Notes: a model not told the origin generated them from the sequence alone. 64,000 bases of DNA from Pseudomonadota bacterium (GCA_017881185.1 JADGRE010000002.1:9158-73157), one strand, 5' to 3'. Shown: positions 4,423-32,666, counted from the stretch's first letter. Translations and numbers: made by a program.

Positions 4423-5820
4423 ATGCCTAAGATCGGCGACGTTGTCGCCGATAAGTACGAGGTCGAGCGCATCATCGGTGAGGGCGGCATGGGAGCGGTG
4501 TTTGCCGCCATGCACAAGCTCACCGGCAGGCGCGTCGCGCTCAAGTGGATGCTGCCCGAGCTGGCGCGTGACGCCGACGCCGTGCAGCGCTTCATGCGCG
4601 AGGCCCAGGCCGCCGGCCGCATCAACCACCCGAACGTCGTCGACGTCTACGACGTGGGTCAACACGACGACTCGTTCTTTCTCGTCATGGAGTTTCTGCA
4701 AGGTGAGCCGCTCACCGCCGCGCTCGAGCGACGCAACCTCACCGTCGGCGAGGTGGTCGACCTGCTCTTGCCGGCGATGCGCGGCGTCGCAGCCGCGCAT
4801 CGCGGTGGTGTCGTGCACCGCGATCTCAAGCCCGACAACATCTTCCTGTGTCGCGACGAAGAAGGCAGCATCGTGCCCAAGGTGCTCGATTTCGGCATCT
4901 CCAAGCTCGCAAGCCACGACGGCTCGACCGACATGCACCTGACCAAGACCGGCGCGGTGGTCGGGACGCCTTACTACATGTCACCGGAGCAGATCCGCGG
5001 CTCCAAGCAGGTCGACAAGCGCTCGGACGTCTACGCGTTCGGAGTGATCTTGTACGAGGCGCTGACCGGACAGGTGCCGTTCAATGCCGACACCTACAGC
5101 GCGTTGATTCTCGAGATCGCTACAGGCACGGCCAAATCGCCGCGCGACATCGTGCCGACCTTGCCGGAGCCATTGTCGCAGGTCGTGCTCAAGGCGATGG
5201 CGCGCGAGCTTGGCGATCGCTTCCCGGACATGGAGAGCTTTGCCGTCGCGCTCGAGCCCTTCGCATACACGCCTTCGCTGCGCGGCGAGCGTCGCGATCC
5301 AACCGGTCGCCAGGCGAATTCACTCGCCACGGGTGCCACGGTCAACGCGACTCCGTTCACGTCCGAAGCGCCCGGGGTGCCTAGGCAGAAGACGGGCGGG
5401 CGAGTGGCCGTGGCCCTCGTCGCTTTGGCGGTGCTCGGTGCCATCGCTTGGTTCGCCACGCGTGGTGCAGGGCCTGTCGCCGAAGGCGCGCACGTCGTCG
5501 CGCCGGCCGCGGCGAGCCAGCTGGCGCCCGCGGCACCCGCACCGGAAGAAGGCCCTGGCGCGCCCACGCCGCCGCCATCCGCTGCAGCGGTCGCGGCACC
5601 TGCAGCAGCGCCGGAACCCACGGTGGCTGCACCGCCGAATGCTGCCGCGTCTGTCGCACCCGTCGCGCCCGCGCTCAGCCCGCGCGAGCGCAAAGCCCAT
5701 GCGTCGCGCCATGCCGCCGCTGCAGCAGTCGCTGCACCCGTTGCCGCACCCGACAGCGCGCCGCGTGCACCTGCGGCACGCCGTGCCCGCTCTGGCACCC
5801 TGAGCGTCGACGATTTCTGA
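4423..5820 (+). CDS. Hanks-type Ser/Thr protein kinase with TM segment and Ala/Pro-rich C-terminal tail
   Basis: Motifs GEGGMGAVF, VALK, HRDLKPDNIFL, DFGISK, GTPYYMSPEQ. TM segment VAVALVALAVLGAIAWF. Start is ambiguous: ATG at 4423 is preferred over TTG at 4387. Confidence 0.85.
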   Translation: MPKIGDVVADKYEVERIIGEGGMGAVFAAMHKLTGRRVALKWMLPELARDADAVQRFMREAQAAGRINHPNVVDVYDVGQHDDSFFLVMEFLQGEPLTAALERRNLTVGEVVDLLLPAMRGVAAAHRGGVVHRDLKPDNIFLCRDEEGSIVPKVLDFGISKLASHDGSTDMHLTKTGAVVGTPYYMSPEQIRGSKQVDKRSDVYAFGVILYEALTGQVPFNADTYSALILEIATGTAKSPRDIVPTLPEPLSQVVLKAMARELGDRFPDMESFAVALEPFAYTPSLRGERRDPTGRQANSLATGATVNATPFTSEAPGVPRQKTGGRVAVALVALAVLGAIAWFATRGAGPVAEGAHVVAPAAASQLAPAAPAPEEGPGAPTPPPSAAAVAAPAAAPEPTVAAPPNAAASVAPVAPALSPRERKAHASRHAAAAAVAAPVAAPDSAPRAPAARRARSGTLSVDDF

Positions 5821-5861
5821 ATGCCTCGACTGGCGTGCCCGCTGCGCGGCCTAGCTCGGTG

Positions 5862-7100
5862 TCACGCCGCGCTGGGCGACGGCATCGAGCCGCCGTCCGA
5901 CTGACCCGTGAGCAGCGACGGATGGATGTGCGAGCGCGGCTGCGGTTTCACTTCGTCGTTGCGGAAGGGCCCCAGGCCCTTGCGCTTGAGCTCGGCCGTG
6001 GCCAGCGCCATGTAGCGGCCGTTGTCGAGCATGGCCAGGAGCACGGTGCCGTAGTAGCCCGCGGGCATCTTCGCGGTCTCGGGGAAAAACCGAAGCTTCT
6101 GGAACTCGCGCGACGCCTGTGCGTGATGGTCTGCGTGGCGCGACAGACCCACCAGCGTGTAAAGCGTGAACCAGTTGTCGGTGTCCCACGAATCGATGGA
6201 CACGACCTTCTTGCCCACGCGCGAAAGCCCCCAGTGCTCGATGTAATTCACGGTCTCGAGCAAGGTCACCGCCGTGCGGGCCTGCAAGAGGAAGAACACC
6301 ATGGCCAGCGGGCCGAAGAACACGGCGTACGCTGCAATGATGGCCAGCTCGGCCACCACGCCTTGAAACACGCGGTGCCGCAGCATGCGCGGATCGGGCA
6401 GCTTCATCTTCGGGTCGCCCAGGCGCACTTTTTCGAGGCGCCAGGCGCTGCGGAATTGCGCGGGGATGGTGCGGCGCACGAACTCCTTCTGCGTCTCGCC
6501 GAAGCGCGCCGTGGCCGGGTCTTCGAGCGTGCCGATGCGCGGGTGATGGCCACGCACGTGCTCGGTCGCGAATTGCTCGTAGAGCACGCCCATGAGCAAG
6601 ATGCGGCCCATCAGGAACTCGATCGGGTTCCTGCGATGCACCAGCTCGTGCGCGAGCACGATGCCCGAGTAACCCGCGGTGGTGCCAGGCACGACCAACA
6701 CGGCCACGAGCGTGGCGAGTGTCTGCACGAAGCCGTGGAAGTTGCTGACCGACAGCTGCGAAATGCCGTAGCCGAGCAGCACGTGGTTCGCGATCTGAAT
6801 GGCGAACAAGAGATAGAGCTGCAGATTGAACGGCCAGCTGGGGATGTCTTCGCGCGGCTGACGGAAGTCTCGCGGCGCGCGATTGTCGATGTAGATCAAG
6901 ATCCACACGGGCATCGTCCACAAGAGCGACGACCACCACGCGTGTGGTCCGGTGAGCCAGAACGCGAGCGTAATCAGCGGCAGCACGAACGCCCACAGGT
7001 GCAAGGTGAACGCACGGGCGTTGGACATCGGTTGGGTGGTGCCTTGGAGGTCTTGCGCGACTTGGGCGACTTGGGCCTCGTGCGCATCTGCGGTCTGCAT
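5862..7100 (-). CDS. alkB: Integral-membrane alkane 1-monooxygenase-like (AlkB / fatty-acid desaturase superfamily) di-iron hydroxylase
   Basis: His boxes HELVHR, EHVRGHH and LSRHADHHA, plus NYIEHWGL. Several hydrophobic helices. The ATG at 7100 (MQTADAH) is preferred because the 39-codon upstream extension is Arg-rich. Confidence 0.8.
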   Translation of the reverse strand: MQTADAHEAQVAQVAQDLQGTTQPMSNARAFTLHLWAFVLPLITLAFWLTGPHAWWSSLLWTMPVWILIYIDNRAPRDFRQPREDIPSWPFNLQLYLLFAIQIANHVLLGYGISQLSVSNFHGFVQTLATLVAVLVVPGTTAGYSGIVLAHELVHRRNPIEFLMGRILLMGVLYEQFATEHVRGHHPRIGTLEDPATARFGETQKEFVRRTIPAQFRSAWRLEKVRLGDPKMKLPDPRMLRHRVFQGVVAELAIIAAYAVFFGPLAMVFFLLQARTAVTLLETVNYIEHWGLSRVGKKVVSIDSWDTDNWFTLYTLVGLSRHADHHAQASREFQKLRFFPETAKMPAGYYGTVLLAMLDNGRYMALATAELKRKGLGPFRNDEVKPQPRSHIHPSLLTGQSDGGSMPSPSAA

Positions 7101-7215
7101 CGTTTTGTTCCTAGTATGCCTTCGGCTCGCTCGCCAGTGCCGTCCACGCCAGCGCGCCCGCGCCAGCGCATGACAGGCGCGTGGTGCGGTTGACCAGCCG
7201 GCTCTGACATGCTTC

Positions 7216-7252
7216 ACATACGCATCCGTATGTCACATACTGGTGCGTATGT
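7216..7252. promoter_or_regulatory. Two adjacent palindromes (ACATACG-n4-CGTATGT and ACATAC-n6-GTATGT) in the alkB / ferredoxin divergent intergenic region
   Basis: Read directly. Arm pairs are 7216-7222/7227-7233 and 7235-7240/7247-7252. This is a local low-GC patch. CGTATGTCA also recurs as a direct repeat 19 bp apart. Confidence 0.5.
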
Positions 7253-7333
7253 CAATCCCACGGCGAGGTCTCGCGGCATTGGCTATAGTCGGTCGCCGCG
7301 CGCCTCACGCGCAGCGCATCCCAGGAGGAGCCG

Positions 7334-7528
7334 ATGAGAATCATTGTAGATTTCGATTTGTGTCAGAGCCACGGGCTGTGCACCGAAGCGGCCCCGGAGC
7401 TCTTCCAGATCCGAGACGATGGCTTTCTCTACGTGCTCAACGAGACGCCCGGCAAGGAGCTCGCGGGCAAGGCCCAGAAGGCCGCGATCGAGTGCCCCAC
7501 GGGTGCCATCACGCTCAAGGACGACTGA
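7334..7528 (+). CDS. Small single-cluster ferredoxin (CxxHxxC...CP type)
   Basis: 64 aa. Motifs DLCQSHGLCTEAAPELF and ECPTGAI. AGGAGG lies 5 nt upstream of the ATG. Confidence 0.85.
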   Translation: MRIIVDFDLCQSHGLCTEAAPELFQIRDDGFLYVLNETPGKELAGKAQKAAIECPTGAITLKDD

Positions 7529-7531
7529 GCC

Positions 7532-8743
7532 GTGGACACGGTGGTGGTGGTCGGGGCCTCGCTCGCGGGCCTGCGCTGCTGCGAAGCCCTGCGCCGCCGC
7601 GGCTACAGCGGCAAGCTGGTGCTCGTGGGCGAGGAGGCGCACAAGCCCTACGACCGGCCGCCGCTGTCGAAGCAGGTGCTGTGCGGCGAGTGGGAGCCTG
7701 CGCGGACCGAGTTTCGACGCAAAGAAGGCTATGCGCCGCTCGCGCTGGAGCTGCAGCTGGGCCGGCGCGCGCTGGCGCTGCACGCGCAAGCGCGACGCGT
7801 CGTGCTCGACGACGGCAAGGAGCTTGCCTACGACGGCTTGGTGATCGCGACCGGGGCACGCGCGCGCACGCTGCGCGGCAGCGAAGCGCTCTCGGGCGTG
7901 TTCACGCTGCGCACGCTGGACGATGCGTTGCAGCTGCGCGTGGCGCTGCTGCAGCAACCACGCGTCGTCGTGGTGGGGGCGGGGTTCATCGGTCTCGAGG
8001 TGGCGTCGGCGTGTCGCAAGCTAGACGTCGCGGTCACCGTCGTGGAGTCGATGGCGCTGCCGCTCGACAACCCGCTCGGCAGCGCCGTGGGGCAGGCGGT
8101 GCAGCGCCTGCACGAGGCGCACGGCGTCAGCTTCCGTCTGGGCGTGGGCGTGGCCGCGCTCGAGGGGCACGGGCGCGTGGAGCACGTGCGCTTGTCGGAC
8201 GGCACAGCGGTTCCAGCTGACGTCGTGGTGGTCGGCATCGGCGTCACGCCGAACACAGCGTGGCTCGAAGGCTCCGGCGTCGCGGTCGGCGATGGTGTGC
8301 TGTGTGACCCGACGCTCGCGACCAGTGTGCCGGGCGTCGTCGCTGCCGGTGATGTCGTGCGCTGGGAGAACCCGCTCTTCGGAGAGTCCATGCGGGTGGA
8401 GCACTGGTCGAACGCGGTGGAGCAGGGACAAGCTGCCGCGGCGCGTCTGCTCGCGGGACCCACCGGTGGGGAGCCGTTTTCGTCGTTGCCGTACTTCTGG
8501 TCGGACCAGTACGACCTCAAGTTGCAGTTCGCCGGGCGCGTGCGCGCAGACGACGAGCTGGTGCTGGTGGAAGGCACACTGGCCGATCGCAACTACGTTG
8601 CCCTCTACGGGCGCGCGGGCAAGTTGCGCGGCGTGCTCGCGAGCAATCGGCCACAGCAATTGCTGCGCTACCGAAAGTTGTTGTCGGAGCAGGCGAGCTT
8701 CGACGCTGCGCTCAACGCTGCCCGCCCCTCGGCCGGTCCTTGA
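7532..8743 (+). CDS. FAD-dependent NAD(P)H:ferredoxin (rubredoxin/putidaredoxin-type) reductase
   Basis: VVVVGASLAGLRCCE (GxGxxG), PYDRPPLSK, a second dinucleotide fold VVVVGAGFIGLEVAS, and AAGDV. The GTG start is 3 nt after the ferredoxin stop. Confidence 0.85.
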   Translation: MDTVVVVGASLAGLRCCEALRRRGYSGKLVLVGEEAHKPYDRPPLSKQVLCGEWEPARTEFRRKEGYAPLALELQLGRRALALHAQARRVVLDDGKELAYDGLVIATGARARTLRGSEALSGVFTLRTLDDALQLRVALLQQPRVVVVGAGFIGLEVASACRKLDVAVTVVESMALPLDNPLGSAVGQAVQRLHEAHGVSFRLGVGVAALEGHGRVEHVRLSDGTAVPADVVVVGIGVTPNTAWLEGSGVAVGDGVLCDPTLATSVPGVVAAGDVVRWENPLFGESMRVEHWSNAVEQGQAAAARLLAGPTGGEPFSSLPYFWSDQYDLKLQFAGRVRADDELVLVEGTLADRNYVALYGRAGKLRGVLASNRPQQLLRYRKLLSEQASFDAALNAARPSAGP

Positions 8744-9002: not shown

Positions 9003-10293
<1,291 letters not shown>

Positions 10294-10310
<17 letters not shown>

Positions 10311-11922
10311 GCTCGTTACTGGCGAAGTACTCGCCGAGCTTGGCCTGGGCCTGCGGACCGAAGAGGATCTCGCAGGCCTCGACCAGTCCGGGTGCGTCGC
10401 GAATGCGATCGGGCCGCGCGATCAGCGCGATCTTGCTGCGACGACGCAGGAAGTCCTCGAGCTTCTCCACCATCTCGCGGCGCGCGGCGTGGTGCAGCTC
10501 GCAGCGGATGTATTCGGTGCCGCGGATCAGCACCTGCGCCATGCGTGGGTCCTGACGGATGTCGTCGAGTAGGGCCAGCGCGGCCGCTTGGTAGCGACGC
10601 CACAGCCGCGTGCTGAGCGGCTCGTACGACTCTTTGGCGGTCATGGCGTCCAGCTCCATGAGCCGCGCTTGGTGGAAGAACTCGTCGCGCACTTCGTCGG
10701 GTGGCTCGCCGTACCAGCGCCGGTCGGGGTAGGGCAAGTCGATGCCCAGCGCGTGCACTGCCCTCGCGACCTCGCTGCCGACGTTCAAGCAATCGGTGAG
10801 CTTGCCGCCGAAGATGCTGATGTGGCGCTGCACTTCGTTCACGTCGACGGCGTGCTTGCGCGACAGTGAGGTCCAGTCTCGGCCACCGGTGCCGGAGGCG
10901 CCCGCGTCGACGACCAGCGGTCGTGCTCCGCAGCGCTCAGCGATCACGTCTGCCGCCGTCAGCGGCCGCGCGAGCTTCAAGCGCTTGTTGGCGTTGTCCA
11001 AGATGAACTGGCGGTCTTCGTCGGTGACGTGTGGCGGCAGCTCTTCGATGCGTGTGTCGGTTGTGCCGATGCAGGACGAAGGCCCCAACGGAATCACGAA
11101 GAACAGGCGTCCGTCGTCGGCGAAGAAGGTGAGCACACGCGTGGCCTCGGTGATGCGTGGCACGATCAGGTGCACGCCCTTGGAGAACACGTGTTTGTGC
11201 GCCGTGGTCTGCCCGGCAGCCGCGTTGTTCGCGTCGACATAGGGGCCGGTCGCGTTGATCAGCACGCGCGAGCGGATGGTGCGCTCGCGGCCATCGATTG
11301 CGTCGCGCACACGCGTGTTCCACAGGCCATCGAGGTTGCGGTTGGTCTCCACGCAGCGCACGTAGTTGACGGCGATGGCGCCGCAGTCGAGCGCGGCGCG
11401 GATGAAGCCGAACACGAAGCGCGCGTCGTTGTCGACCAGGTAGGCGTCGGAGTATTCGAAGCCGCCGGGGCCGCGGGGTCGCACCACCGGTTCGTCGCGC
11501 ACTAGTTCGTCTTGTGTGAGCAGGCGTGGTCGGCGCGTGAAGAAGCCGCCGATGGCCCAGTACAAGAGCGTGCCCAGAAAGAGCTTGAAGCGGCTGTGCC
11601 GAAAGCCGCTCTCGACGCTGGTCAGAAAGCGGATCTCGCGCACCGACGACGGATACGCACGCAGCAAACGGTTGCGCGAGCGACACAGCTTGCGCACGAG
11701 GCCCAGCTCGCCGCTCTCCAGATACTTGATGCCGCCCCAGACCAGGTTCGACGACTCTTGACTGGTGAAACCCGCGAAGTCGCCTTGGTCGATCAACGCC
11801 ACACTCGCACCGCGCACGGCGAGCGCCGACGCGCTCACCGCGCCGTTGATGCCGCCGCCGACGATGAGCACGTCGTAGACCTTCCGGTCGAGCTTCTCGA
11901 GGTTGTTCTGCCTCAGCTTCAT
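10294..11922 (-). CDS. glpD: FAD-dependent glycerol-3-phosphate dehydrogenase
   Basis: MKLRQNNLEKLDRKVYDVLIVGGGINGAVSA dinucleotide-binding N-terminus, then GFTSQESSNLVWGGIKYLE. The ATG at 11922 lies within a longer shadow-extended ORF. Confidence 0.8.
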
Positions 11923-16609: not shown

Positions 16610-18139
16610 CTACTTGTTCAGCGCCTTCATCGCCACGGCACGCACCGTAGCGTCTTCGTCTTGCGTGGCGGCCTGCAGCGCTGCACCGAAGAGCTCGGGG
16701 TCCAGCTTGCTCATCGCGCGCACCGCGTAGTAGCGGATGAGCGAGTTGTCGGACTTCTGGTCCTTCTCGAGACGCTGGCTGACGCGCTTCTTTACGTCTT
16801 CCGAGTCGCTCTCTTTGAACTCTTTGACCAGCTGATCGTAGGCGTCACGGTCGGGCATCGACGCCGTGTGTGGCGGCGGGATCGACGCGGCCGGGCGCGT
16901 GGTGTCGCGCACGGTGGTGATGGGCGTCGCCGCGGGCTTACGCACAGGCGCCGGCTTCGGCGGCAAGCGCGACGGGATGTCGCCCGACGAGGTGTCGGTG
17001 AGGCGACGACGCACGGTGCCTGGGCTCGTGCGGAACAGCTCATACTCTTCGATCTCGCCCAGATCGAGACCCGACAAACCGCGCTGCAACTTCGCGCGCA
17101 GCTGGCCGCCCTCACGCTTGGCGGCAGCGACCATCTCCTGGATGCCGTCGGGCAAGGCCTGCGACGAGCAGAACACCCGCAGCGTGGCCAGGCCCTGCTT
17201 GTCGCTCGTGCGGTACACGCCCATGTGGATGGCGGCGCCGCCGGTCTCGTCCTTCAGCTGTTCGTTGATGTGCTCGAAGAAGGTGTACGGTGTGTCGGCG
17301 AGCAACGAGTCGGGCGCTTCGATGACCACGCCCATGTACGAGACGTTCTCGAGCTGAAAGCCTTCGGGGTTGATGCTGCTGTGCAGGATGCCGTCGCGCA
17401 CGGCCTGGACCACGGCGTCGACCGACAGCCGCGGCAGCGTGGTGGACGCGAAAGTGATGATGCCGCCCGAGAGCAGCAAGGTGCGGAAGTCTTCGCCATC
17501 GAGCGAGCGGATCGCCGTGATGTCGTCGCGGCTGTTCAGCTGGTTGAGCGCGTCGAGCGGCTCGGCGATGATCTTGTTGATCTCGGCGTAGTACTTGTCG
17601 AGTGACACCGCACCGTGGTTCTTCGCCAGGCGCGCGTTGTCGACGAACACCCAGCCGAGCAGGTTCTCTTTGACCAGCTCGTTCACGGCGCGCACCGCGT
17701 TCACCTTGGCGATGCCGCTCTCGTGCTCGTTCGGCAAGGTGGCGAGCACCAGCAAGGGCAATGAAAGATCGGCCAGCGTGCGGATGAGCTCGGCCACGGC
17801 CGAGCCGGTGCCACCGCCGAGGCCGGCGGTGATGAGCACTGCGTCTGCGCCCGCGGCGTGCTCCGAGATGCGCTCGCGGATCTTGCCGGCGTGCACCGTG
17901 ATGCACTCGCGGCCGTAGCTGAGATCCGAGCCAGCGCCGTCGTAGCCGTCGATGCCGATGTACATGCGCTGCTCTTCGGGCAGCGACAGGCCGCTCCTGG
18001 AGAGCGACTTGAGGTCGGTGTCCGCGGTGTTGAGCGCGATGGCGCGGTAACCGCGACGCGCGAACTCTGCTGCGAGGTTTCCACCCGCTTGGCCCAGACC
18101 CACGATGACGATCTCGATAGCTTTCCCAGCTGGCTTCAC
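16610..18139 (-). CDS. Divergent tubulin/FtsZ-superfamily GTPase with Pro-rich linker and C-terminal HEAT-like repeats
   Basis: Motifs IVGLGQAGGN, TAGLGGGTGSA (tubulin signature), NEHESG, FVDNARL and SLDGEDFRTLL, with tail YYAVRAMSKLDP...DEDATVRAVAMKALNK. The GTG at 18139 follows GGAGGAA; the track ATG at 18169 has no SD. Confidence 0.75.
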   Translation of the reverse strand: MKPAGKAIEIVIVGLGQAGGNLAAEFARRGYRAIALNTADTDLKSLSRSGLSLPEEQRMYIGIDGYDGAGSDLSYGRECITVHAGKIRERISEHAAGADAVLITAGLGGGTGSAVAELIRTLADLSLPLLVLATLPNEHESGIAKVNAVRAVNELVKENLLGWVFVDNARLAKNHGAVSLDKYYAEINKIIAEPLDALNQLNSRDDITAIRSLDGEDFRTLLLSGGIITFASTTLPRLSVDAVVQAVRDGILHSSINPEGFQLENVSYMGVVIEAPDSLLADTPYTFFEHINEQLKDETGGAAIHMGVYRTSDKQGLATLRVFCSSQALPDGIQEMVAAAKREGGQLRAKLQRGLSGLDLGEIEEYELFRTSPGTVRRRLTDTSSGDIPSRLPPKPAPVRKPAATPITTVRDTTRPAASIPPPHTASMPDRDAYDQLVKEFKESDSEDVKKRVSQRLEKDQKSDNSLIRYYAVRAMSKLDPELFGAALQAATQDEDATVRAVAMKALNK

Positions 18140-18455
18140 GGCTTCCTCCGTTTCACACCCCCGGTACATTGGGGACGGCCACTATAGACCCGGCTTTTGG
18201 CCGGAGTCCATCGCCACCGGCTCGTGTTTCAGAGGTTGGGACGGGGGCCGTGAGAAGAAGCGATCACGGCGCCGTCTTGCTGCAGCAGTGGAAGCCGACG
18301 TTGGGCAGGCGCAGGTCGGCCGCGCCGACCGGGCAGTCGAAGTCGCAGCGCAGGCCCGCCGGCAGGTTGTTGCCGCACGCCGGGTCGATCGTGTCGGGCT
18401 GCCGTTGTCGGCTTCGTCGCACCCTTGGGTTTCGGGATGTTATGCTGCTTGAGCC

Positions 18456-21109: not shown

Positions 21110-22519
21110 GTGAGAAAGCCGCCCAGTCCGAAGACCGTCGCCGAGGCCCGTGAGGCCGGCTTCCGGCCACGCAGCGTGCGTGCCGAGATCCGCGACAACT
21201 TACTGCGCAAGCTCGCCGCGCGCGAGCCGCTGTTCCCTGGCATCCACGGCTACGAAGACACCGTGTTTCCAGCTGTCGAAAACGCGTTGCTCGCGGAGCA
21301 AGATCTGCTCTTCCTCGGCGAGCGCGGTCAGGGCAAGTCGCGGCTCATTCGCAGCTTGCTCGGGCTGCTCGATGAGTGGATCCCGGAGCTTGCAGGCAGC
21401 GAAGTGCACGACGACCCGGCCGCACCGATCTCGGCGCAGGGGCGTCTCTTGCTCGCCGAGCACGGAGAGCGCGCGCCGATCCGCTGGCTGCACCGCGACG
21501 AGCGCTACGGCGAGAAGCTCGCCACGCCCGACGTGTCGACTGCCGACTTGATCGGCGACGTCGACCCCATGCGCGTGGTCGAGGGCCGTTCGCTCGGAGA
21601 CGAGCTCACGATGCACTACGGGATCTTGCCGCGTACCAACCGCGGCATCTTCTGCATCAACGAGCTGCCGGATCTCACCGAGAAGATCCAGGTCGCGCTG
21701 TTCAACGTGATGGAAGAGCGCGATGTGCAGATCAAGGGCTACCGCGTGCGCTTGCCGCTCGATGTGTTGGTCGTCGCCAGCGCCAACCCCGAGGACTACA
21801 CCAGCCGCGGGCGCATCGTCACTCCGCTCAAAGATCGCTTCGCCGCGCAGATCCGCACGCACTATCCGCGCACGCGCGCCATCGAGCTGCAGATCGTGGA
21901 GCAAGAGGCGGTGCCGTTGTCGGTGCCCGGCGTGGAAGTGGTGGTGCCTTCGTTCATGAAGAAGATCCTCGCCGAGATCACCTTCCAGGCGCGGCAGAGC
22001 CCCGATGTCAGCCAGAGCTCGGGCGTGTCGGTGCGCATGACCGTGGCCAGCTACGAGACGCTGGTAGCCAACGCAGTGCGCCGCGCGCTGCGCAACGGGG
22101 ATCGCCATGCCGTGCCGCGCATCTCGGACCTGTGGGCGCTGCATCACTCGATGCTCGGCAAGATCGAGCTCGAGTACGCCGGCAAGCGTTCGGAGGACGA
22201 GCTGGTGAAGAACCTGATCGCGCGCGCGGTGAAGGTAGTGTTCGACGGCGCGGTGAGCGACGCCGCGAGCCTCGATGCCATCGCCGCTGCGTTCGGTCAG
22301 GGCTGGATGGTGGAAGTGTCCGACATGACGCCGGCAGCAGAGTTTCTCGCCGGCCTCGACAAGATCCCCGGGCTGCGCAAGGCCGTCGCTCAGCTTGCCG
22401 AAGGCGAGACACCCGCGATGTATGCTTCGGCAGTGGAGCTGATCTTGGAGGGCCTGCACTTGAGCAACCGCTTGAACAAGACCACTTCCGAGCACGCCGC
22501 CACCTACGCACACAAGTGA
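21110..22519 (+). CDS. AAA+ ATPase of the Mg-chelatase (ChlI/BchI) / MoxR-like type
   Basis: Walker A LGERGQGKS, Walker B-like GIFCINELPD, then VVASANPEDYTSRGRIVTPLKDRF. GTG start. Confidence 0.75.
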   Translation: MRKPPSPKTVAEAREAGFRPRSVRAEIRDNLLRKLAAREPLFPGIHGYEDTVFPAVENALLAEQDLLFLGERGQGKSRLIRSLLGLLDEWIPELAGSEVHDDPAAPISAQGRLLLAEHGERAPIRWLHRDERYGEKLATPDVSTADLIGDVDPMRVVEGRSLGDELTMHYGILPRTNRGIFCINELPDLTEKIQVALFNVMEERDVQIKGYRVRLPLDVLVVASANPEDYTSRGRIVTPLKDRFAAQIRTHYPRTRAIELQIVEQEAVPLSVPGVEVVVPSFMKKILAEITFQARQSPDVSQSSGVSVRMTVASYETLVANAVRRALRNGDRHAVPRISDLWALHHSMLGKIELEYAGKRSEDELVKNLIARAVKVVFDGAVSDAASLDAIAAAFGQGWMVEVSDMTPAAEFLAGLDKIPGLRKAVAQLAEGETPAMYASAVELILEGLHLSNRLNKTTSEHAATYAHK

Positions 22520-24153
22520 AGGTCCATCGCTACAGCAAGTGGGACGCGACGCAGGCGGAGCTCTCGCTCGATGCCGCGGACGCGCTCGACGCGCTGGCGG
22601 ACGTGATGATGCACGGGCTGTCACCGCGCGACGCCATGCAGTACCTGGAGCGCTTCGGCTTCGAGCTGGCAGGCAAGGACTTTCGCGTGCTCGGCAGCCA
22701 GGAGCTCTCGCGCGAGCTACGCAAGCAGGCGCACGAGCTCTACGAGGGTCACAAGCTGGACGACCCGTTCGCGCAGCTGCGGGAACGTTTGCAGCAGCTG
22801 CAGGCGATCGAGCAGCAGACCTTGCGCGAGCGTCATGGTTACGAGTCGCGCGCGATGAACGAGTTTCTGGAGCGGCGACACGCACCCGCCGCGAACCTCT
22901 CGCAGGCGATTGCGCGCTTCGAGGACTACGACTTCCAGGACGACGACGCGCGCGAGCGCTACGACGAGCTGCGCTCCGAGCTGCCACAGCTGCGTGAGCT
23001 CGAGCGCTTCACGCAGGAGCAGGGCGCACGTTTTCGCGGTCGACCGCAGGCCGACTACGAGACCGCGCAAGCGCTACGCAAACGCTTGCAGACCATCGAG
23101 GCCATCACCCAAGCCATCGAGGCTGGCGAGCTGGGGAACATCGATACGAGCCAGCTCGCTGAGCTGCTCGGCGACGGCGCAGCGCGCTCGCTCATGATCT
23201 TGCGCGACCTTCCATCGCGCCTCGCCGACGAAGGGTACCTGCGCGAGCAGGGCAGTGTACCCGAGCTCACGGCCAAAGCCGTGCGTCGCATCGGACAACG
23301 CGCGCTCGCCGACGTGTACACCATGCTGCGCAAGGGCCGCAGCGGTGAGCATGGCACGAGCGATCGCGGCGCCGGCAGCCCACGGCCCGACGAAACGCAT
23401 CCGTACCAGTTCGGCGATGCGTTCGAGATCGACGTGACCAAGACCGTGCTCAATGCGCTGCGCAGCGCTGCCTCGCGCGCCGTGAGTGACCCGCATCCGC
23501 GCAAGCTGCGCGTGTCGGTGTCGGACGTGGAAGTGCGGGAGCACGACTTCAGCACCGACACGACGACCGTGCTGCTCTTGGATCTATCGTGGTCCATGTC
23601 GTTCGAAGGGCGCTTTCCCGCAGCCAAGCGCGTCGCGCTGGCCATGGATCATCTGATTCGCACCCAGTTCCCCCGCGACCGCTTCTTCATCGTGGGCTTC
23701 TCCACGCGCGCGCGTGAGCTCTCCATTGCAGAGCTGCCGGCCGTGTCGTGGGACCCGTCTGATCCGTTCACGAACCTGCAGGAGGGGCTGCAGCTGGCCG
23801 AGCGCTTGATCGCCGCGCACCCGTCACGCAGCCCGCAGGTGCTCGTGATCACCGACGGCCAACCGACCGCGTACTGCGCCGGCAACGAGCTGCACGTGGA
23901 GTGGCCGAGCGGTTACGGCGGCATCTCTCCCAACGCCGTCGCCTACACCCTCGAGCAGGTGCACCGCATCACACGCCGAGGCGTGGTCATCAACACCTTC
24001 ATGCTGCACGACTCGCCGGAGCTGGTGGGTTTCGTGGAGCGCATGACCGAGATCAACCACGGTCGAGCTTTGTTCACCGACCCGAGCCAGCTCGGCTCGT
24101 ACGTGATGGTCGATCACCTCAACCAGAAGCGTCGGTCGCGCGCGCGCTCGTAG
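22516..24153 (+). CDS. von Willebrand factor A (vWA) domain protein, partner of the preceding AAA+ ATPase
   Basis: MIDAS motif VLLLDLSWSMS ... VITDGQPT. Long helical N-terminal region. The GTG start overlaps the upstream stop (GTGA). Confidence 0.7.
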   Translation: MKVHRYSKWDATQAELSLDAADALDALADVMMHGLSPRDAMQYLERFGFELAGKDFRVLGSQELSRELRKQAHELYEGHKLDDPFAQLRERLQQLQAIEQQTLRERHGYESRAMNEFLERRHAPAANLSQAIARFEDYDFQDDDARERYDELRSELPQLRELERFTQEQGARFRGRPQADYETAQALRKRLQTIEAITQAIEAGELGNIDTSQLAELLGDGAARSLMILRDLPSRLADEGYLREQGSVPELTAKAVRRIGQRALADVYTMLRKGRSGEHGTSDRGAGSPRPDETHPYQFGDAFEIDVTKTVLNALRSAASRAVSDPHPRKLRVSVSDVEVREHDFSTDTTTVLLLDLSWSMSFEGRFPAAKRVALAMDHLIRTQFPRDRFFIVGFSTRARELSIAELPAVSWDPSDPFTNLQEGLQLAERLIAAHPSRSPQVLVITDGQPTAYCAGNELHVEWPSGYGGISPNAVAYTLEQVHRITRRGVVINTFMLHDSPELVGFVERMTEINHGRALFTDPSQLGSYVMVDHLNQKRRSRARS

Positions 24154-24736
24154 CCGGCGACCACTCGCTGACGAAGTCTTCCGGCACTGGCCGCACGACT
24201 TCGGGCGCGGGCTGCCTGGGCGTGCCCGCGTAGAGGAAGCCCACGATGGCGTCCACACCGAAAGCTTGCTGCACCTGCGGGTCGTAGGCGGAGTCTCCCG
24301 TGCGCCAGATTCCCGCATAGCCGCGTGCATGCAGCGTGAGCAGGATGGCGTGTGCGGCCGCAGCGGCCGCGAGTAGCTGTTCGTTGACGGGCACTTTGTG
24401 GTCTTTCGTCAGCTGCGCACCGACCATGAGAATCAGTGGGGCTCGCAGCGCCTTGCCGCGCAGCTTGTCGAGCTCCTCCGGCGTGGCGCGCGGGTTCTTG
24501 CCCGCCAGCGTCTGCGCCATCAGCTCGCCCAGCGCGTTGCGTGCCTCGCCGCGCACCATGCGCACACGCCACGGGCGCAGCATGCCGTGGTCCGGCGCGC
24601 GCGCAGCCGCTGCGAAGCACAGCTGCAGCGTCTCGGTGTCAGGCGCGGGCTCGGTCAGCTTGCCGTTGGAGGCGCGGGTGGTGAGCGCGTGCAGGGCGCT
24701 CATGTGTGGGGGTGCAGGCGGATGTGTCGTCGTCAT
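24119..24736 (-). CDS. Nitroreductase family protein
   Basis: 205 aa. ALTTRASNGKLTEP ... RAPDHGMLRPWR ... layout typical of the NfnB/NfsA-like fold. The 3' end overlaps the vWA gene convergently by 35 nt. Confidence 0.65.
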   Translation of the reverse strand: MTTTHPPAPPHMSALHALTTRASNGKLTEPAPDTETLQLCFAAAARAPDHGMLRPWRVRMVRGEARNALGELMAQTLAGKNPRATPEELDKLRGKALRAPLILMVGAQLTKDHKVPVNEQLLAAAAAAHAILLTLHARGYAGIWRTGDSAYDPQVQQAFGVDAIVGFLYAGTPRQPAPEVVRPVPEDFVSEWSPATSARATDASG

Positions 24737-25019
24737 GAGCGTTGTCCTCGTCGTCGGACGTGCGGTCGGCAGTGCGGCAGTCGCGAGCAGTCGCCCGCGG
24801 AATCCAAGCTATGCGGCGTGCGTTGACTCCAATACATCAGCCTCGCCGGCATGTCGCGGGCGGAGCTGACAAGTGTACGTGTCAGTGCGTTGTTGTCCGT
24901 ACCCAGGCGCAGTTCGACGTAATGAACGAGTTTGCCGAATCACCACAGTTTTCAAGTGTTGTGCTAACCTCAGTGCATACGTTGATCGTGCCGTATTCGT
25001 ACCGCCATGAGGATGCCTA

Positions 25020-26882
25020 GTGGGAGCCGTGTCGATTGACCAGCGCGCTCCGGGGGGGCCTCTCGCCGCGGGCGCAAAACTTGGACGCTACGAAATACTC
25101 GCCAAGCTGGCTGCTGGCGGCATGGCCGTGGTGTACGTCGCGCGTGCTTCCGGTGTTGCGGGCTTCGAGCGCTTGGTTGCGATCAAGGTGCTGCACGCGA
25201 ACCTCGCGCACGAAGAAGAGTTCATCAAGATGTTCCTCGACGAAGCGCGGCTCGCTGCGCGCATTCGTCACCCGAACGTCGTGCCCACCATCGACATCAG
25301 CGACTCCGATGAAGCGGGCTACTTCATCGTCATGGACTACATCGAGGGCGACCACCTCGGTCAGATCCTCGGGGCGGCGCACAAGGCAAACGAGAAGCTG
25401 CCGGTGCCGGTCACGCTGCGCATCATCGGCGACGCGCTCGGCGGTCTCGGTGCCGCGCACGACCTGACTGACGAAAACGGCAAGCACCTGCACTTGGTGC
25501 ACCGCGACGTGTCTCCGCACAACATCATGGTCGGCCGCGATGGCGTGGCTCGACTCACCGACTTCGGCGTGGCCAAGGCCGAAGACCGGCTCACGCACAC
25601 GCGTGACGGTCAGGTGAAGGGCAAGCTCGCGTACATGGCGCCCGAGCAAGCGGCCAGCGGCCAGACCGACTCGCGCTCCGATCTGTTCTCGATGGGCGTG
25701 ATCCTCTGGGAGTCGATCACCGGTCGGCGTCTGTTCCGCGCCGAGAGCACGGCTGCCACGCTCCACAAGCTGCTGCACGATGAAATTCCGGCACCGTCCA
25801 CCGTGGACCCGGCGCTCGCACCGCTCGATGGCGTGTTGCAGAAGGCGCTGGCGCGCGATCTCGCGCAGCGTTACCAGACCGCCGAAGAGTTCGCGAACGG
25901 CATCGAGGAAGCGGCGTCGGCCGTCGGCGGCATGTCGTCGTTGCGTGCGGTCAGCAAAGCCGTGAAGCAGCACGCTGCGGTCAAGATCAAGCGCGACAAG
26001 AAATTGATCGACGACGCCATCAGCTCGCTCAAGGCCATCGACGCAGAGGCCAGCGCGTTTTCGGCCGACGCGCTGTCGGAGCCGTCCAATCCGTCGGCAT
26101 CCGACGCTTCGATCGGCTCGCTGAGCATGTCGAAGGTCAGCGGCGTGTTCTCCCATGCAACCATGCCGGGCGCACGCGTGCGTGGTGCTGGTGCGCGCCA
26201 ATCCGAGGGACGCCCGCCACCGGTTGCCGGTGCGTTACCACCGCCGCCTCCGATCGGCACGCTGCCGTCCACCATCCCCGAGCCGCTCGAGCTTTCCGAT
26301 CTGGGCATGGAGCTCGACGAGCATGGCAACCGGCCCGGTGGTCGTTCTCGCGTGGTGCGCGCGACAGTGTTCGCGCTGGGGTTGATCGCCGCCGGCGCAG
26401 TGCTGTGGTTCATGCGACACGGCGATGGTGACACCGTGGGCGACACCGTGCGCGTGCACTCGATCGACAATCCGACGGTTGCGCCGTCAGCCGCCACTTC
26501 GCCGGCTCCGAGCGCGCCCCAGCCCAGCGTTCCGCCGCCCGTTGCCGAGCCCGCTGCCGAGCCCGCGGCCCAGCCGCCCGCCGAAGCCAACAGCGCGCCG
26601 GCGGCCGTCGCCGCTCCGTCCGTTCAACCCCAACCGACGGCGGTAACGCCGCCCGCCGTCGCGCCCGCAGAGCCGACCGCTGCACCTTCGCGCTCTGCCA
26701 ACGCGGTGCGCAAGCCACGACGCGAGACTGGACGCGAGACTGGACGCGAGAACGCGGTCGAGGCGGTGGGCGCACCAAAGCCGGTGGTCGCGGCACCCAA
26801 GCCCGTCGAAGCGCCGCCCAAGCCTGCCCCGTCGCGACACGCCGAGCCGGGCGACTTCATCCCCAACCCTTACCAGAACTAG
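25020..26882 (+). CDS. Hanks-type Ser/Thr protein kinase with TM segment and Pro/Ala-rich tail
   Basis: Motifs AAGGMAVVY, VAIKVL, HRDVSPHNIMV, DFGVAK, YMAPEQ. TM segment VFALGLIAAGAVLWF. GTG start. Confidence 0.85.
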   Translation: MGAVSIDQRAPGGPLAAGAKLGRYEILAKLAAGGMAVVYVARASGVAGFERLVAIKVLHANLAHEEEFIKMFLDEARLAARIRHPNVVPTIDISDSDEAGYFIVMDYIEGDHLGQILGAAHKANEKLPVPVTLRIIGDALGGLGAAHDLTDENGKHLHLVHRDVSPHNIMVGRDGVARLTDFGVAKAEDRLTHTRDGQVKGKLAYMAPEQAASGQTDSRSDLFSMGVILWESITGRRLFRAESTAATLHKLLHDEIPAPSTVDPALAPLDGVLQKALARDLAQRYQTAEEFANGIEEAASAVGGMSSLRAVSKAVKQHAAVKIKRDKKLIDDAISSLKAIDAEASAFSADALSEPSNPSASDASIGSLSMSKVSGVFSHATMPGARVRGAGARQSEGRPPPVAGALPPPPPIGTLPSTIPEPLELSDLGMELDEHGNRPGGRSRVVRATVFALGLIAAGAVLWFMRHGDGDTVGDTVRVHSIDNPTVAPSAATSPAPSAPQPSVPPPVAEPAAEPAAQPPAEANSAPAAVAAPSVQPQPTAVTPPAVAPAEPTAAPSRSANAVRKPRRETGRETGRENAVEAVGAPKPVVAAPKPVEAPPKPAPSRHAEPGDFIPNPYQN

Positions 26883-27002
26883 TCAGCTGTAGGTGTAGGG
26901 TCGGTCCTGCGGCGCGGCAGTGCGAATACACAGCGCTGCGGCACAATTGCGCCCGATGCGCCCACGCTTCTATCATACTGAAGACGGGGATTCGGTCGAC
27001 GC

Positions 27003-27896
27003 ATGCAAGAGGATTGGGAGGACAAGACCATCATCTCGACGGACGTTGCGCCGACGGCCACGTCGGGTCGCAAGCGTGCCCAGCTCATCGTCGTGGCCGG
27101 GGCCAACGTCGGAGAGATGTACGACCTCAAGGGCACGCTCATCATCGGGCGCGGCCGTGAGGCCGACATCCGAGTGCAGGGCGACGGCATCTCGCGCAAG
27201 CATGCGCGGCTGCGCTTGTCGGGCGAAAACGCCGTGCTCGAAGACCTCGGGTCCACCAACGGCTCGTTCGTCAACGGCGAGAAGGTCAGCAGTCGCGTGT
27301 TGGCCGACGGCGACAAGATCCAGGTCGGCACTGCGACCATCCTGAAGTACACGCACCACGACGAGCTCGACGAGGACTTCCAGCGCCAGATGTTCGAGTC
27401 GGCGTCGCGCGATGGGCTGACGCAGAGCTACAACAAGCGCTTCTTCCTGGAGCAGCTGAACAGCGAGTACGCCTACGCCGCACGCCACAGTGCGGAGCTG
27501 TCGTTGATCATGTTCGACATCGATCACTTCAAGCAGGTGAACGACACCTACGGGCACCCGGCCGGTGACTTCGTGCTGTCGCAGCTCACGCGCGCGGTGA
27601 TTCCGGCGATCCGTACCGAAGACATCTTCGCGCGCTACGGCGGCGAAGAGTTCGCCATCCTCTCGCGCACCACGCCGCGTGCTGCGGCCGCGCTCGTGGC
27701 AGAACGTGTGCGCAAGACCATCGAGCAGCACCAGTTCGTGTTCGAGGGCAAGCGCATTCCCGTGACGGTCAGCATCGGCGTGGGCTCCATGCCCGATGCG
27801 AACGTGAAGTCGCCGGAAGACTTGGTCTCGGTGGCGGACAAGGCGCTCTACCAAGCCAAGCGCGGTGGCCGCAACCGCGTGATCGCAGCGGCCTGA
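27003..27896 (+). CDS. FHA domain - GGDEF domain protein (putative phospho-Thr-responsive diguanylate cyclase)
   Basis: FHA part: IIGRGREADIRVQGDGISRKHARL ... STNGSFVNG. GGDEF part: DIDHFKQVNDTYGHPAGD and RTEDIFARYGGEEF, that is an RxxD I-site 5 residues before an intact GGEEF (27612-27653). Confidence 0.85.
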   Translation: MQEDWEDKTIISTDVAPTATSGRKRAQLIVVAGANVGEMYDLKGTLIIGRGREADIRVQGDGISRKHARLRLSGENAVLEDLGSTNGSFVNGEKVSSRVLADGDKIQVGTATILKYTHHDELDEDFQRQMFESASRDGLTQSYNKRFFLEQLNSEYAYAARHSAELSLIMFDIDHFKQVNDTYGHPAGDFVLSQLTRAVIPAIRTEDIFARYGGEEFAILSRTTPRAAAALVAERVRKTIEQHQFVFEGKRIPVTVSIGVGSMPDANVKSPEDLVSVADKALYQAKRGGRNRVIAAA

Positions 27897-29677
27897 TGTC
27901 AGCGTTGACCGCAGGCGACCTGATCGCGGGGCGCTATCGTCTGGAGTCGTTGATCGGCGAAGGCGGCATGGCCAGCGTGTGGCGCGCCGAAGACCTGACC
28001 TTGCGGCGCCCGGTGGCGATCAAGCTCCTGTACCTGCGCGGTCATCGTGACCCGACCGTGATCGTCGATCAGTTCTTGCGCGAAGCACGCATCGCGGCGT
28101 CGGTGCAGCACCGCAACGTGATCCACACGGTGGACTTCGGCGTGGTCGACGACATGCCGTACATGGTGATGGAGTTGCTGTCGGGTGAGAGCCTGCACGA
28201 TCGCATGCAGCGCGAGCCGCGGCTGCGCATGGAAGAGGTCGTGCACTTCGCCAGTCTCACGCTGCGCGGGCTGGCGGCCGTTCATGAAGCGGGCATCGTG
28301 CACCGCGATCTCAAGCCGCAGAACATCTTCCTGCACCGTGACACCGACACCGTGTATCCGAAGATCCTGGACTTCGGCATCTCGCGCAGTCTCGATGGCG
28401 ACCACGAGCGTCCGTCGGCGATCTCGACGCAAGACGGCATGATCGTCGGCACGCCCGACTACATGTCGCCCGAGCAAGCGCGCGGCGAGAAGCACATCGA
28501 CAAGCGCGCCGACATCTACAGCATGGGCGCGATCATCTACGAGGGCATCACCGGTCGCTTGCCGTACGAGGCCAACACCGTGGGCGAGCTGATCGTGAAG
28601 ATCGTGACCACCATCCCGCCGAAGATGATCCAGCTTCGGGCCGACGTGCCCGAGCTGCTCTCGGACTGTGTGGCGCAGGCGATGGCGCACGATCGCGAAG
28701 AGCGCTTCGTCGACGCACAGGTGTTTCGACGCGCGCTGATCTCCGCGGCGGAGAAGGCCTTCGTGGCAGCATCTGGGCCCGCGGGCTCGGAGCGGCCAGC
28801 GCGACAGGCCGTCGCGGCGCCCATGCCTGCGCCCGTGCCCGCCACCGCGGTGCCGTTGCCCTTGCCACCGCCGCCATCAGCGGCGGCGGTGGCACCCGCT
28901 CCGCTGCCCGCTGCGGCCGCTCAAAACGGCTGGGGCGACTTCGAGGGTCTGGCGCAGCAGGCCAGCCGCGAATCGCCGCCGCTGCTGCGCGATCTCCACA
29001 ATCCCAATCCCGCGCTTGCACCCGCGCCTGTGTCTTCCGGGCGCGAGCCCAGCTCGGCGCGCATACCGCTCGGGCCCCGCCCAGCGGAGCCGATCGCTCC
29101 GCTCGCGCTGCCCGCGAATCCCGTGCGCAGCAGCCACGGACACAAGGAGCCGGGCCGACCGAGTGGGGCGCGATCAGCGCCAAGAATCGGACACTCGGCG
29201 CCAGACGACTCGGCGCTCCTGGGCAATTCTCTCGACGGGCTCGGCGGCGGCTTCAGCGCGGACGCGCTCGATCTCGACTACGGCCAAGGTCCCGGTGCCG
29301 CGGCGGCACGATCGCGTGCAGCGCAGAAATCGCCCGGCGCCAAGTCGCCCGTGCAGGCGAAGATCACTGCGGCCAATGCGCGGCCGGCAGCTCGCAAAGC
29401 AGGCCCTGCAGTGGCGCCGGCGGGTGTGGTCGTACGCCGGCCGGCCACTCGTCAACGGCCAAGCGTGTGGTGGCTCGTGCCTGTGGCGCTGGTGATCGGC
29501 CTGCTTGCGCTGCTGCTTTCGCCGGGTTTGTTCTCGGCGCCGGCCCCCGACAGCGCCGCCGCTGCTGCGCTCGAGGCTCGCAACCCTGCCACGGCGGGCT
29601 CCGATCGCCGCATGCAGTACAGCCGTCGGCGCAACGTGGGCGCGCGTCCGGTCGCGTTGCGCGATGTGGGCTTCTGA
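27896..29677 (+). CDS. Hanks-type Ser/Thr protein kinase with long Pro/Ala-rich region and C-terminal TM
   Basis: Motifs GEGGMASVW, VAIKLL, HRDLKPQNIFL, DFGISR, GTPDYMSPEQ. The ATG overlaps the FHA-GGDEF stop by 1 nt (TGATG). Confidence 0.85.
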   Translation: MSALTAGDLIAGRYRLESLIGEGGMASVWRAEDLTLRRPVAIKLLYLRGHRDPTVIVDQFLREARIAASVQHRNVIHTVDFGVVDDMPYMVMELLSGESLHDRMQREPRLRMEEVVHFASLTLRGLAAVHEAGIVHRDLKPQNIFLHRDTDTVYPKILDFGISRSLDGDHERPSAISTQDGMIVGTPDYMSPEQARGEKHIDKRADIYSMGAIIYEGITGRLPYEANTVGELIVKIVTTIPPKMIQLRADVPELLSDCVAQAMAHDREERFVDAQVFRRALISAAEKAFVAASGPAGSERPARQAVAAPMPAPVPATAVPLPLPPPPSAAAVAPAPLPAAAAQNGWGDFEGLAQQASRESPPLLRDLHNPNPALAPAPVSSGREPSSARIPLGPRPAEPIAPLALPANPVRSSHGHKEPGRPSGARSAPRIGHSAPDDSALLGNSLDGLGGGFSADALDLDYGQGPGAAAARSRAAQKSPGAKSPVQAKITAANARPAARKAGPAVAPAGVVVRRPATRQRPSVWWLVPVALVIGLLALLLSPGLFSAPAPDSAAAAALEARNPATAGSDRRMQYSRRRNVGARPVALRDVGF

Positions 29678-29769
29678 GCAACGACACGCTCGCCATCCAC
29701 CTTTTCGCGGGCGGCCCGTGCGGTTAGAGTGCCGCGCAACTTCCGCCCCCGCAGAGCACCAGGAGCACC

Positions 29770-32666
<2,897 letters not shown>

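Follow-up and report, generated by a model that had tools for sequence, protein, structure and literature searches.

A DgcB-type FHA-GGDEF cyclase encoded between two Hanks-type kinases in a myxobacterial genome, and its possible control by threonine phosphorylation

We analysed a stretch of 64,000 nucleotides (nt) from a Polyangiales-type myxobacterial metagenome-assembled genome (MAG), deposited as Pseudomonadota bacterium (GCA_017881185.1, JADGRE010000002.1:9158-73157); this whole stretch is called the window below, and positions are counted from its first letter. It carries three co-directional genes, which encode a putative diguanylate cyclase with FHA and GGDEF domains and, on either side of it, the Hanks-type Ser/Thr kinases STK-A and STK-B, both predicted to be membrane-anchored:

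25020-26882, plus strand: STK-A, open reading frame (ORF) of 620 amino acids (aa), Hanks-type Ser/Thr kinase (Pfam Pkinase, E 1.8e-30)
27003-27896, plus strand: FHA-GGDEF cyclase, ORF of 297 aa (Pfam FHA, E 1.1e-19, aa 47-109; Pfam GGDEF, E 1.4e-45, aa 134-292)
27896-29677, plus strand: STK-B, ORF of 593 aa, Hanks-type Ser/Thr kinase (Pfam Pkinase, E 1.4e-46)

An earlier note on this DNA had described the middle gene as a 297-residue protein joining an FHA to a GGDEF domain, and both the ORF and the Pfam matches agree, with the FHA peptide quoted there found in its place. The TGATG overlap that it reported is visible in the raw sequence (GCC TGA TG), where the cyclase stop (27894-27896) and the STK-B start (27896-27898) share one A. 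The STK-A stop lies 120 nt before the cyclase ATG. Three Hanks kinases are encoded in the window, together with a single FHA and a single GGDEF domain. An exact-sequence look-up of the cassette proteins returned no public names; the closest named relative (88% identity) is annotated as Polyangiales bacterium.

The cyclase and its tail threonine

The best solved relative of the cyclase, by a wide margin, is full-length DgcB (PDB 6hbz), matched over aa 34-294 (phmmer E 1.9e-59), and 6hbz_B is also the top Foldseek match of its structural model (E 4.7e-30, 40% identity, 280 columns). DgcB (Bd0742) of Bdellovibrio bacteriovorus has an FHA domain that acts as a consensus phosphothreonine (pThr) reader, and the ligand held in the FHA cleft is pThr14 of its own N-terminal tail (Meek et al., 2019, Nat Commun 10:4086, PMC6733907). 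The DgcB mutant S15C/S73C, whose tail is locked by a disulfide, is constitutively active, and inhibition through the RxxD I-site overrides activation; the authors did not identify the activating kinase and reported no kinase gene adjacent to dgcB (Meek et al., 2019). Our literature search found no paper that names the DgcB kinase. By these comparisons the window protein classes as a full-length homologue of DgcB, a predicted DgcB-type FHA-GGDEF diguanylate cyclase. The two proteins share size, 40% identity over the full length and the same succession of parts, namely a tail, an FHA domain, a short helical linker with a DxLT motif and a GGDEF domain with GGEEF. In the window cyclase these are:

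aa 1-23: acidic tail, disordered, with Thr9 (T9) at nt 27027-27029
about aa 27-117, nt 27081-27353: FHA domain, with R50, S64, R65, T85 and N86
D137-T140: DxLT motif with the linker helix
aa 134-292, nt 27402-27878: GGDEF domain
aa 204-207, nt 27612-27623: I-site RTED, five residues before GGEEF
aa 213-217, nt 27639-27653: active-site GGEEF

The intact GGEEF and the RTED five residues ahead of it (nt 27612-27653) thus have exactly the coordinates that the earlier note had given. Hydropathy reveals no hydrophobic segment in the cyclase, and a soluble protein is predicted. Its AlphaFold2 model has a mean confidence (pLDDT) of 78, with values above 90 in the GGDEF domain and below 50 in the tail (aa 1-23). 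The tail is modelled outside the FHA cleft, but at this low confidence the model is uninformative on docking.

The residues that matter in DgcB have their counterparts here. The pThr-binding set R61, S75, R76, T96 and N97 corresponds, at a constant offset of 11, to R50, S64, R65, T85 and N86; the I-site residues R218 and D221 to R204 and D207; E229 and E230 to E215 and E216; and the secondary arginine R249 to R235. The tail Thr and the RxxD I-site are likewise common to both proteins. GGEEF, D172, D174, N180, D189, K286, R290, R204, D207 and R235 are all present and conserved, and we take the GGDEF residues among them to serve as the metal-binding Asp, the guanine-binding Asn/Asp and the phosphate-binding Lys/Arg. 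D189 is, in our understanding, the mark of a canonical, c-di-GMP-specific GGDEF domain (c-di-GMP, cyclic di-GMP). A Hypr GGDEF, which produces cyclic GMP-AMP (cGAMP), was ruled out because position 189 holds this canonical Asp.

Conservation was assessed at two depths. In a protein search over 1.84 billion representatives of 50%-identity clusters, 11,099 clusters matched at E <= 1e-30, some of them perhaps GGDEF-only; the best 150 of the 11,099 were without exception full-length, at about 300 aa, and 149 of these, with pairwise identities below 50%, make up our alignment. In this alignment R50 is kept in 148/149, S64 in 149/149, R65 in 147/149 and N86 in 148/149, and H67 and S84 likewise in 147-149/149, while T85, unlike the rest of the cleft, is Thr in 78/149. 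All five cleft residues are invariant across 22 closer relatives. The Arg/Ser/Asn set, whose failure in an alignment the earlier note had said would speak against it, is therefore intact and close to invariant. Catalytic and I-site residues are kept in 140-149 of the 149 representatives overall (D172 147, D174 149, N180 147, D189 148, R204 147, D207 145). Among 269 family proteins retrieved, none was fused to a kinase.

The N-terminus of the cyclase, MQEDWEDK-T9-IISTDV, is similar to the tail of DgcB (NLEK-pT14-SIVASDT). All 22 relatives, which are 54-88% identical to the window protein, have T9, and its column is Thr in 138/149 representatives. An acidic-T-hydrophobic motif is found in 93/149 tails, compared with 38.7 +/- 4.8 in shuffled tails, at a median of 17 residues before the FHA domain; a stricter pattern had recovered it in 36/149 and was replaced by this looser rule with its shuffle control. 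The motif extends to the most distant loci, including that of a cultured Corallococcus genome. The predicted disorder of the tail (pLDDT below 50) is what would be expected of a phospho-dependent ligand. Acidic residues ahead of the Thr, with hydrophobic ones at +3 and +5, also resemble the substrate motif that mycobacterial Hanks kinases are reported to prefer. Because the T9 column and the tail motif are kept across the family, the self-tail pThr switch appears, from the alignment, to be a property of the family as a whole. In a Polyangiaceae MAG (locus L010) we observed two FHA-GGDEF paralogs on the same strand, 3.5 kb apart (5410-6366 and 9908-10882), both with acidic-T tails (DFDEKTRVTQV and LEQKTLTTE).

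The window protein and DgcB also differ. The DgcB tail, LEK-pT-SIV, has Val at +3 of the pThr, whereas in the window tail, WEDK-T-IIS, and in those of the immediate clade positions +1 and +2 are hydrophobic and +3 is Ser or Ala. The dgcB operon contains a calcineurin-like phosphatase gene; the window cyclase is flanked by two Hanks kinases instead, with no phosphatase among the window genes that were scanned. DgcB belongs to an obligate predator, the window cyclase to a myxobacterium of Polyangiales type.

Other systems resemble the cyclase in part. A Sorangium protein, BE21_29150, in which a kinase is fused to a tail-FHA-GGDEF module has been reported (Meek et al., 2019); like the window cassette it combines a Hanks kinase with this module in a myxobacterium and implies the same kinase-to-cyclase logic, but it is a single polypeptide, whereas the window has separate genes and two kinases. 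In GarA/OdhI, too, the FHA domain binds the protein's own N-terminal tail Thr once Hanks kinases (PknB, PknG) have phosphorylated it; the tail is of the same acidic-T-hydrophobic kind and the FHA domains are similar (E 1e-13; NCBIfam OdhI, 1e-15). There, tail binding turns off the interaction of FHA with metabolic enzymes and no output domain is present, while the window protein has a fused diguanylate cyclase. PleD and WspR share with it a phosphorylation-controlled, dimerisation-dependent GGDEF domain with RxxD product inhibition, yet their input is a receiver Asp phosphorylated by a histidine kinase, compared with a pThr presumably read by FHA.

The adjacent kinases and the persistence of gene order

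The features of the two kinases, together with the gene divergent from STK-A, are:

24119-24736, minus strand: nitroreductase gene, divergent from STK-A
nt 25089-25871, about aa 24-284 of STK-A: kinase domain
nt 25500-25523, plus strand: STK-A catalytic loop HRDVSPHN, with Ser in place of the canonical Lys
nt 26352-26408, aa 445-463 of STK-A: transmembrane (TM) helix by hydropathy
nt 27935-28711, about aa 14-272 of STK-B: kinase domain
nt 29462-29518, aa 523-541 of STK-B: TM helix by hydropathy

STK-A possesses the VAIK, alphaC Glu, HRD, DFG and APE motifs, a Ser/Thr-rich cytoplasmic linker with a conserved SKxSGVFS and a Pro/Ala-rich extracytoplasmic tail that ends in a conserved NPY. Its HRDVSPHN loop and its whole activation loop (LTHTRDG) are invariant among orthologs, and the form HRD[VI]SP[HQ]N is common to nearly all of the best 80 STK-A relatives retrieved. 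For these reasons the Lys-to-Ser change looks characteristic of a large family of myxobacterial kinases and does not look like pseudokinase decay; a literature search for the HRDVSP loop found nothing. STK-B, in turn, has canonical motifs that are conserved in its orthologs, namely GEGGMASV (GxGxxxxV), VAIK, FLREA, HRDLKPQN, DFG and SPEQ, a cytoplasmic linker with a conserved WGDFEGL and an extracytoplasmic tail, about 50 aa long, with RDVGF at its end. The extracytoplasmic parts of both kinases are short or of low complexity, and no sensor domain is recognisable in either. The two are 32% identical over the kinase domain and are therefore not recent duplicates.

We compared the window with related loci that were sampled through the cyclase, plus two (L098 and L101) found through the kinase. 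The percentages give the identity of their cyclases to that of the window:

L081, 88%: nitroreductase (minus strand), STK-A, cyclase, STK-B, gcvP
L083, 66%: full order nitroreductase (minus strand), STK-A, cyclase, STK-B, gcvP
L097, 65%: the same full order
L084, 64%: the same full order
L098, 64%: STK-A, cyclase, STK-B, gcvP; the contig begins about 190 nt before STK-A, so that the nitroreductase position is not covered
L096, 62%: the same full order as L083
L092, 59%: STK-A upstream; an opposite-strand ion-channel gene between cyclase and STK-B
L095, 58%: no kinase within 8 kb
L086, 57%: STK-A only; unrelated genes downstream
L094, 57%: STK-A ortholog 79 nt upstream; flanks replaced by Mur ligase/FtsQ genes upstream and MreB-like/OmpA genes downstream
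L101: first 122 aa of the cyclase at the contig end, next to an STK-A relative

The order kinase, cyclase, kinase is found again in relatives whose cyclases are as little as 62% identical, and the whole syntenic block consists of FGE-sulfatase, MoxR, VWA, nitroreductase, kinase, cyclase, kinase and gcvP genes. Synteny between kinase and cyclase, which the earlier note had listed as a check, is thus conserved within the clade. In 11/12 clade loci the gene immediately before the cyclase, in the same orientation, is an STK-A ortholog, and a neighbour-joining tree groups the STK-A-linked cyclases in one clade. STK-B follows directly in 7/11 scorable loci (the window, L081, L083, L084, L096, L097 and L098), with gaps of -1 to 45 nt; it is displaced in L092 and absent from L086, L094 and L095. 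The stress that the earlier note had laid on the downstream, coupled kinase is not borne out by these counts, which mark the upstream STK-A, not the overlapping STK-B, as the evolutionarily persistent partner. The L094 kinase is 51% identical to STK-A over 92% of its length and retains HRDVSPHN and the C-terminal NPY.

Two of these loci have neighbours of note. In L097 a gene (4174-5148) just upstream of the nitroreductase/STK-A/cyclase/STK-B block, which has no counterpart in the window, has a 324-aa product that gives a weak PilZ match and is possibly a c-di-GMP receptor. The L095 cyclase (7012-7656) forms a divergent pair with a response-regulator gene, in surroundings of exopolysaccharide type (glycosyltransferases, sulfotransferase, UDP-glucose dehydrogenase).

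Sampling in the reciprocal direction, we picked metagenome loci by STK-A and took its best 80 relatives, among which only L098 has a full cyclase next door and L101 a partial one. A tree of kinase domains unites all cyclase-adjacent kinases in one orthogroup and places the look-alikes without a cyclase in a sister paralog clade, which also has the HRDVSPHN loop and the NPY tail; this explains why so few of the 80 have a cyclase neighbour. Kinases of the sister clade reside in type IV pilus clusters of Polyangia (L103:5268-10829, L106:5887-10833, L111:5674-8858 and L116:5608-10539), on the same strand as, and directly upstream of, pilC (T2SSF) and a PilS-like histidine kinase gene.

Proposed phosphorylation of the cyclase and possible origins of the gene pairing

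From the homology, the residue conservation and the gene order we infer phosphorylation of T9, the kinase responsible and the resulting activation. The reading that we favour, with moderate confidence, is that a DgcB-type cyclase is switched on by threonine phosphorylation, with STK-A as its most probable kinase and STK-B as a likely second input. The resting FHA-GGDEF protein would be cytosolic and inactive until a Hanks-type kinase phosphorylates T9 in the disordered acidic tail (WEDK-T9-IIS). The protein's own FHA domain (R50, S64, R65, T85, N86) would then capture pT9, in cis or across a dimer, and the re-packing of FHA would bring two GGDEF domains together productively, so that c-di-GMP is made; the product, bound at the RxxD I-site (R204 and D207, plus R235), would switch the enzyme off again. 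The kinase would most probably be the membrane-anchored STK-A, encoded directly upstream, and the translationally coupled STK-B would be a likely second input in this lineage. That STK-A, STK-B or both are the physiological kinases of T9 we hold to be somewhat better than an even guess.

Such a relay is not new, as the mechanism is that published for DgcB. The general proposal of the earlier note, that Ser/Thr phosphorylation is read by FHA and passed on to c-di-GMP, is well supported by full-length homology to a protein for which it was shown experimentally. What that note overlooked is the tail: the ligand of FHA is probably the cyclase's own pT9 and not a phosphorylated kinase. The present locus adds two kinases encoded beside the cyclase, which are candidates for the missing kinase of DgcB-type cyclases. 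The FHA-gated diguanylate cyclases form a large family of which DgcB is the sole studied member, and a kinase orthogroup kept next to the cyclase through rearrangements offers a concrete route to the upstream step and to its generality beyond Bdellovibrio. If both kinases act on T9, the locus would neatly exemplify how signals of the Hanks-kinase and c-di-GMP networks converge in myxobacteria; should the adjacency reflect nothing but inherited gene order, it is one more annotated GGDEF gene.

Several observations weigh against a functional pairing or against details of the switch. At +3 of T9, where DgcB has the Val that occupies its FHA pocket, the window protein has Ser (Ala in the clade consensus). 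STK-A does not have the catalytic-loop Lys, and it is presumed active solely on the strength of its conservation. The adjacencies of nitroreductase with STK-A and of STK-B with gcvP are kept about as well as those between kinase and cyclase, and because these unrelated neighbours persist to a similar degree, synteny within the clade is unable to separate function from inheritance. The pair is also separable. The clade member L095 has a cyclase with no kinase within 8 kb, and L099 (5149-13532) has a positional STK-A ortholog (57% identity over 548 aa) that retains the divergent nitroreductase; the genes after it encode MksE/MukB-like condensin proteins in place of the cyclase, of which tblastn found no remnant there. 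Outside the clade, cyclases of 55-58% identity sit after xseB-ispA with no adjacent kinase.

More distant loci were drawn from a contig scan in which full-length alignment picked generic GGDEF patterns; the relatives considered are those of at most 52% identity among the matches listed, and 54 GGDEF-only loci among the matches listed in the same scan served as a control, an imperfect one confounded by taxonomy. No kinase was found within 2 kb in 19 of the 25 distant FHA-GGDEF loci. The remaining 6/25, compared with 1/54 in the control (p = 0.003), amount to an enrichment that is itself confounded by taxonomy and by the high kinase density of myxobacteria; for immediately adjacent kinases the figures are 3/25 and 1/54 (p = 0.09). 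The three loci with an immediately adjacent kinase (L003, L005 and L025, the last from a Pirellulaceae MAG) share no other neighbours with the window, and the adjacency there appears to have arisen independently.

Much of this evidence would also suit a DgcB-type pThr switch whose kinase is encoded elsewhere, or which several of the many myxobacterial kinases serve, the genes being neighbours by descent. We regard this as possible, though on balance improbable. It draws on the synteny of the block as a whole, on the separability of the pair and on the distant loci without a nearby kinase; moreover, no kinase adjoins dgcB according to Meek et al. (2019), and kinases are dense here, with three in 64 kb. 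Yet the adjacency of STK-A and cyclase goes beyond inheritance of a block in L094, where it outlives the replacement of both flanks. Same-strand orientation with short gaps, down to the 1-nt overlap of cyclase and STK-B, the independent adjacencies in L003, L005 and L025 and the published kinase-FHA-GGDEF fusion also speak for a functional link, and a pThr-gated enzyme needs a Ser/Thr kinase. By our own estimate, with 3-5% of genes encoding kinases, kinases on both sides would occur by chance in about 0.1-0.3% of cases. As judged from gene order, the pairing of kinase and cyclase is plausible but unproven.

At its boldest, the pairing would make the STK-A orthogroup the dedicated, co-inherited kinase of Polyangiales DgcB-type cyclases, the first identifiable cognate kinase, with the unrelated membrane kinase STK-B (32% identical) translationally coupled in this lineage as a second sensor acting on T9 in a two-input gate and with a link to surface or motility sensing. 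The last element is suggested because the closest paralogs of STK-A sit in type IV pilus clusters. This extension is speculative, and we would not expect it to hold in full.

Alternatively, the phosphothreonines bound by FHA could be those of an autophosphorylated kinase, in the juxtamembrane linker or the activation loop of STK-A or STK-B; the cyclase would in this way be recruited to the membrane or gated allosterically there, the tail not being the switch. Docking of an FHA domain onto an autophosphorylated kinase is established for GarA with PknB, which counts in favour of this alternative; so do the long Ser/Thr-rich cytoplasmic linkers of both kinases with their conserved SKxSGVFS (STK-A) and WGDFEGL (STK-B), the invariant LTHTRDG of STK-A and the tight gene linkage, which would fit a physical complex. 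It nevertheless leaves unexplained a tail Thr that is kept in 138/149 representatives within an acidic-T-hydrophobic motif and that is the very ligand observed in the structures of DgcB. In most of the family there is no neighbouring kinase to dock on, and the kinase linkers show no conspicuous conserved pT-x-x-hydrophobic site. As the sole mechanism we therefore think docking unlikely. The two models are compatible, since by analogy with GarA docking could precede phosphorylation of the tail.

That the kinases belong to a PD-T4-6-like or MADS-like anti-phage system, with the cyclase providing a nucleotide signal, is hardly credible: PADLOC PD-T4-6 and mad6 models match both kinases (E 1e-50 to 1e-83) and NCBIfam antiphage_MADS6 matches at 140-146 bits, but these matches span the generic kinase domain only, the NCBIfam cutoff is 460 bits, the cyclase has no PADLOC match, D189 is taken to mark a c-di-GMP-specific GGDEF domain and the context is one of stable housekeeping genes (gcvP, nitroreductase, mfd, surA) conserved across deep divergence, with no variable island. 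PD-T4-6/MADS membership was rejected on the family cutoff, the generic nature of the matches and the lack of an island context.

Transcription signals and other genes of the window

24850-25019, no strand assigned: divergent intergenic region between nitroreductase and STK-A, 49-56% GC in the composition profile
26947-26976, plus strand: promoter-like element TTGCGC-N18-TATCAT, conserved in the alignment of STK-A/cyclase spacers

The earlier note had placed a kinase 120 nt upstream of the cyclase and a promoter-like, AT-rich stretch between them. The distance stands; the spacer, at 62% GC compared with 67% for the window, is not AT-rich, and a consensus scan found no plus-strand promoter in it, though it does contain the conserved TTGCGC-N18-TATCAT. 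The scan did not report this element because its -35 hexamer matches at only 3/6 positions. Its -10-like TATCAT box ends 26 nt before the cyclase ATG, and TTGCG(C/G)-N18-TATCAT with the same 18-nt spacing is found in the window, L081, L096 and L098, with TATCAT alone in L083 and L094. TATCAT is thereby present in the last 60 nt of 6/10 orthologous spacers, compared with 0.04 expected from shuffles, in spacers that are otherwise divergent. Because of this conserved element, the cyclase and STK-B probably share a promoter of their own, with read-through from STK-A possible; no terminator-like site was found by scanning between STK-A and the cyclase. The locus has no real GC trough apart from 24850-25019, for which reason this is the probable promoter region of STK-A, possibly with read-through into the cassette. 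An Rfam scan of 24500-30200 returned no family, hence neither a riboswitch in the two spacers nor one of the glycine type ahead of gcvP. STK-B and gcvP are 92 nt apart (29678-29769).

The other predicted genes scanned in the window are of housekeeping type and include genes for a tubulin/FtsZ-like protein, an M10 peptidase, MoxR and VWA proteins, the nitroreductase, gcvP, acyl-CoA enzymes, mfd, SurA-like PPIases and Bat-like proteins. No PP2C phosphatase, EAL, HD-GYP or PilZ domain was found among those scanned. The third Hanks-type kinase of the window (4357-5817, plus strand; Pkinase, E 5.2e-49) has no linkage to the cassette. An overlapping gene pair at 21110-24153 (plus strand) encodes a MoxR-like AAA+ ATPase and a VWA protein (with an Rv0959_3rd domain in relatives); three relatives (L083, L084 and L086) also have this pair conserved ahead of the cassette, L086 in inverted orientation. 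Tubulin-like proteins are uncommon in bacteria. The one encoded at 16610-18181 (minus strand) is a tubulin/FtsZ-family GTPase of 523 aa with a TubZ-like C-terminal domain and HEAT repeats, and a tubulin-family gene also occurs in the flank of L081, the relative at 88% identity.

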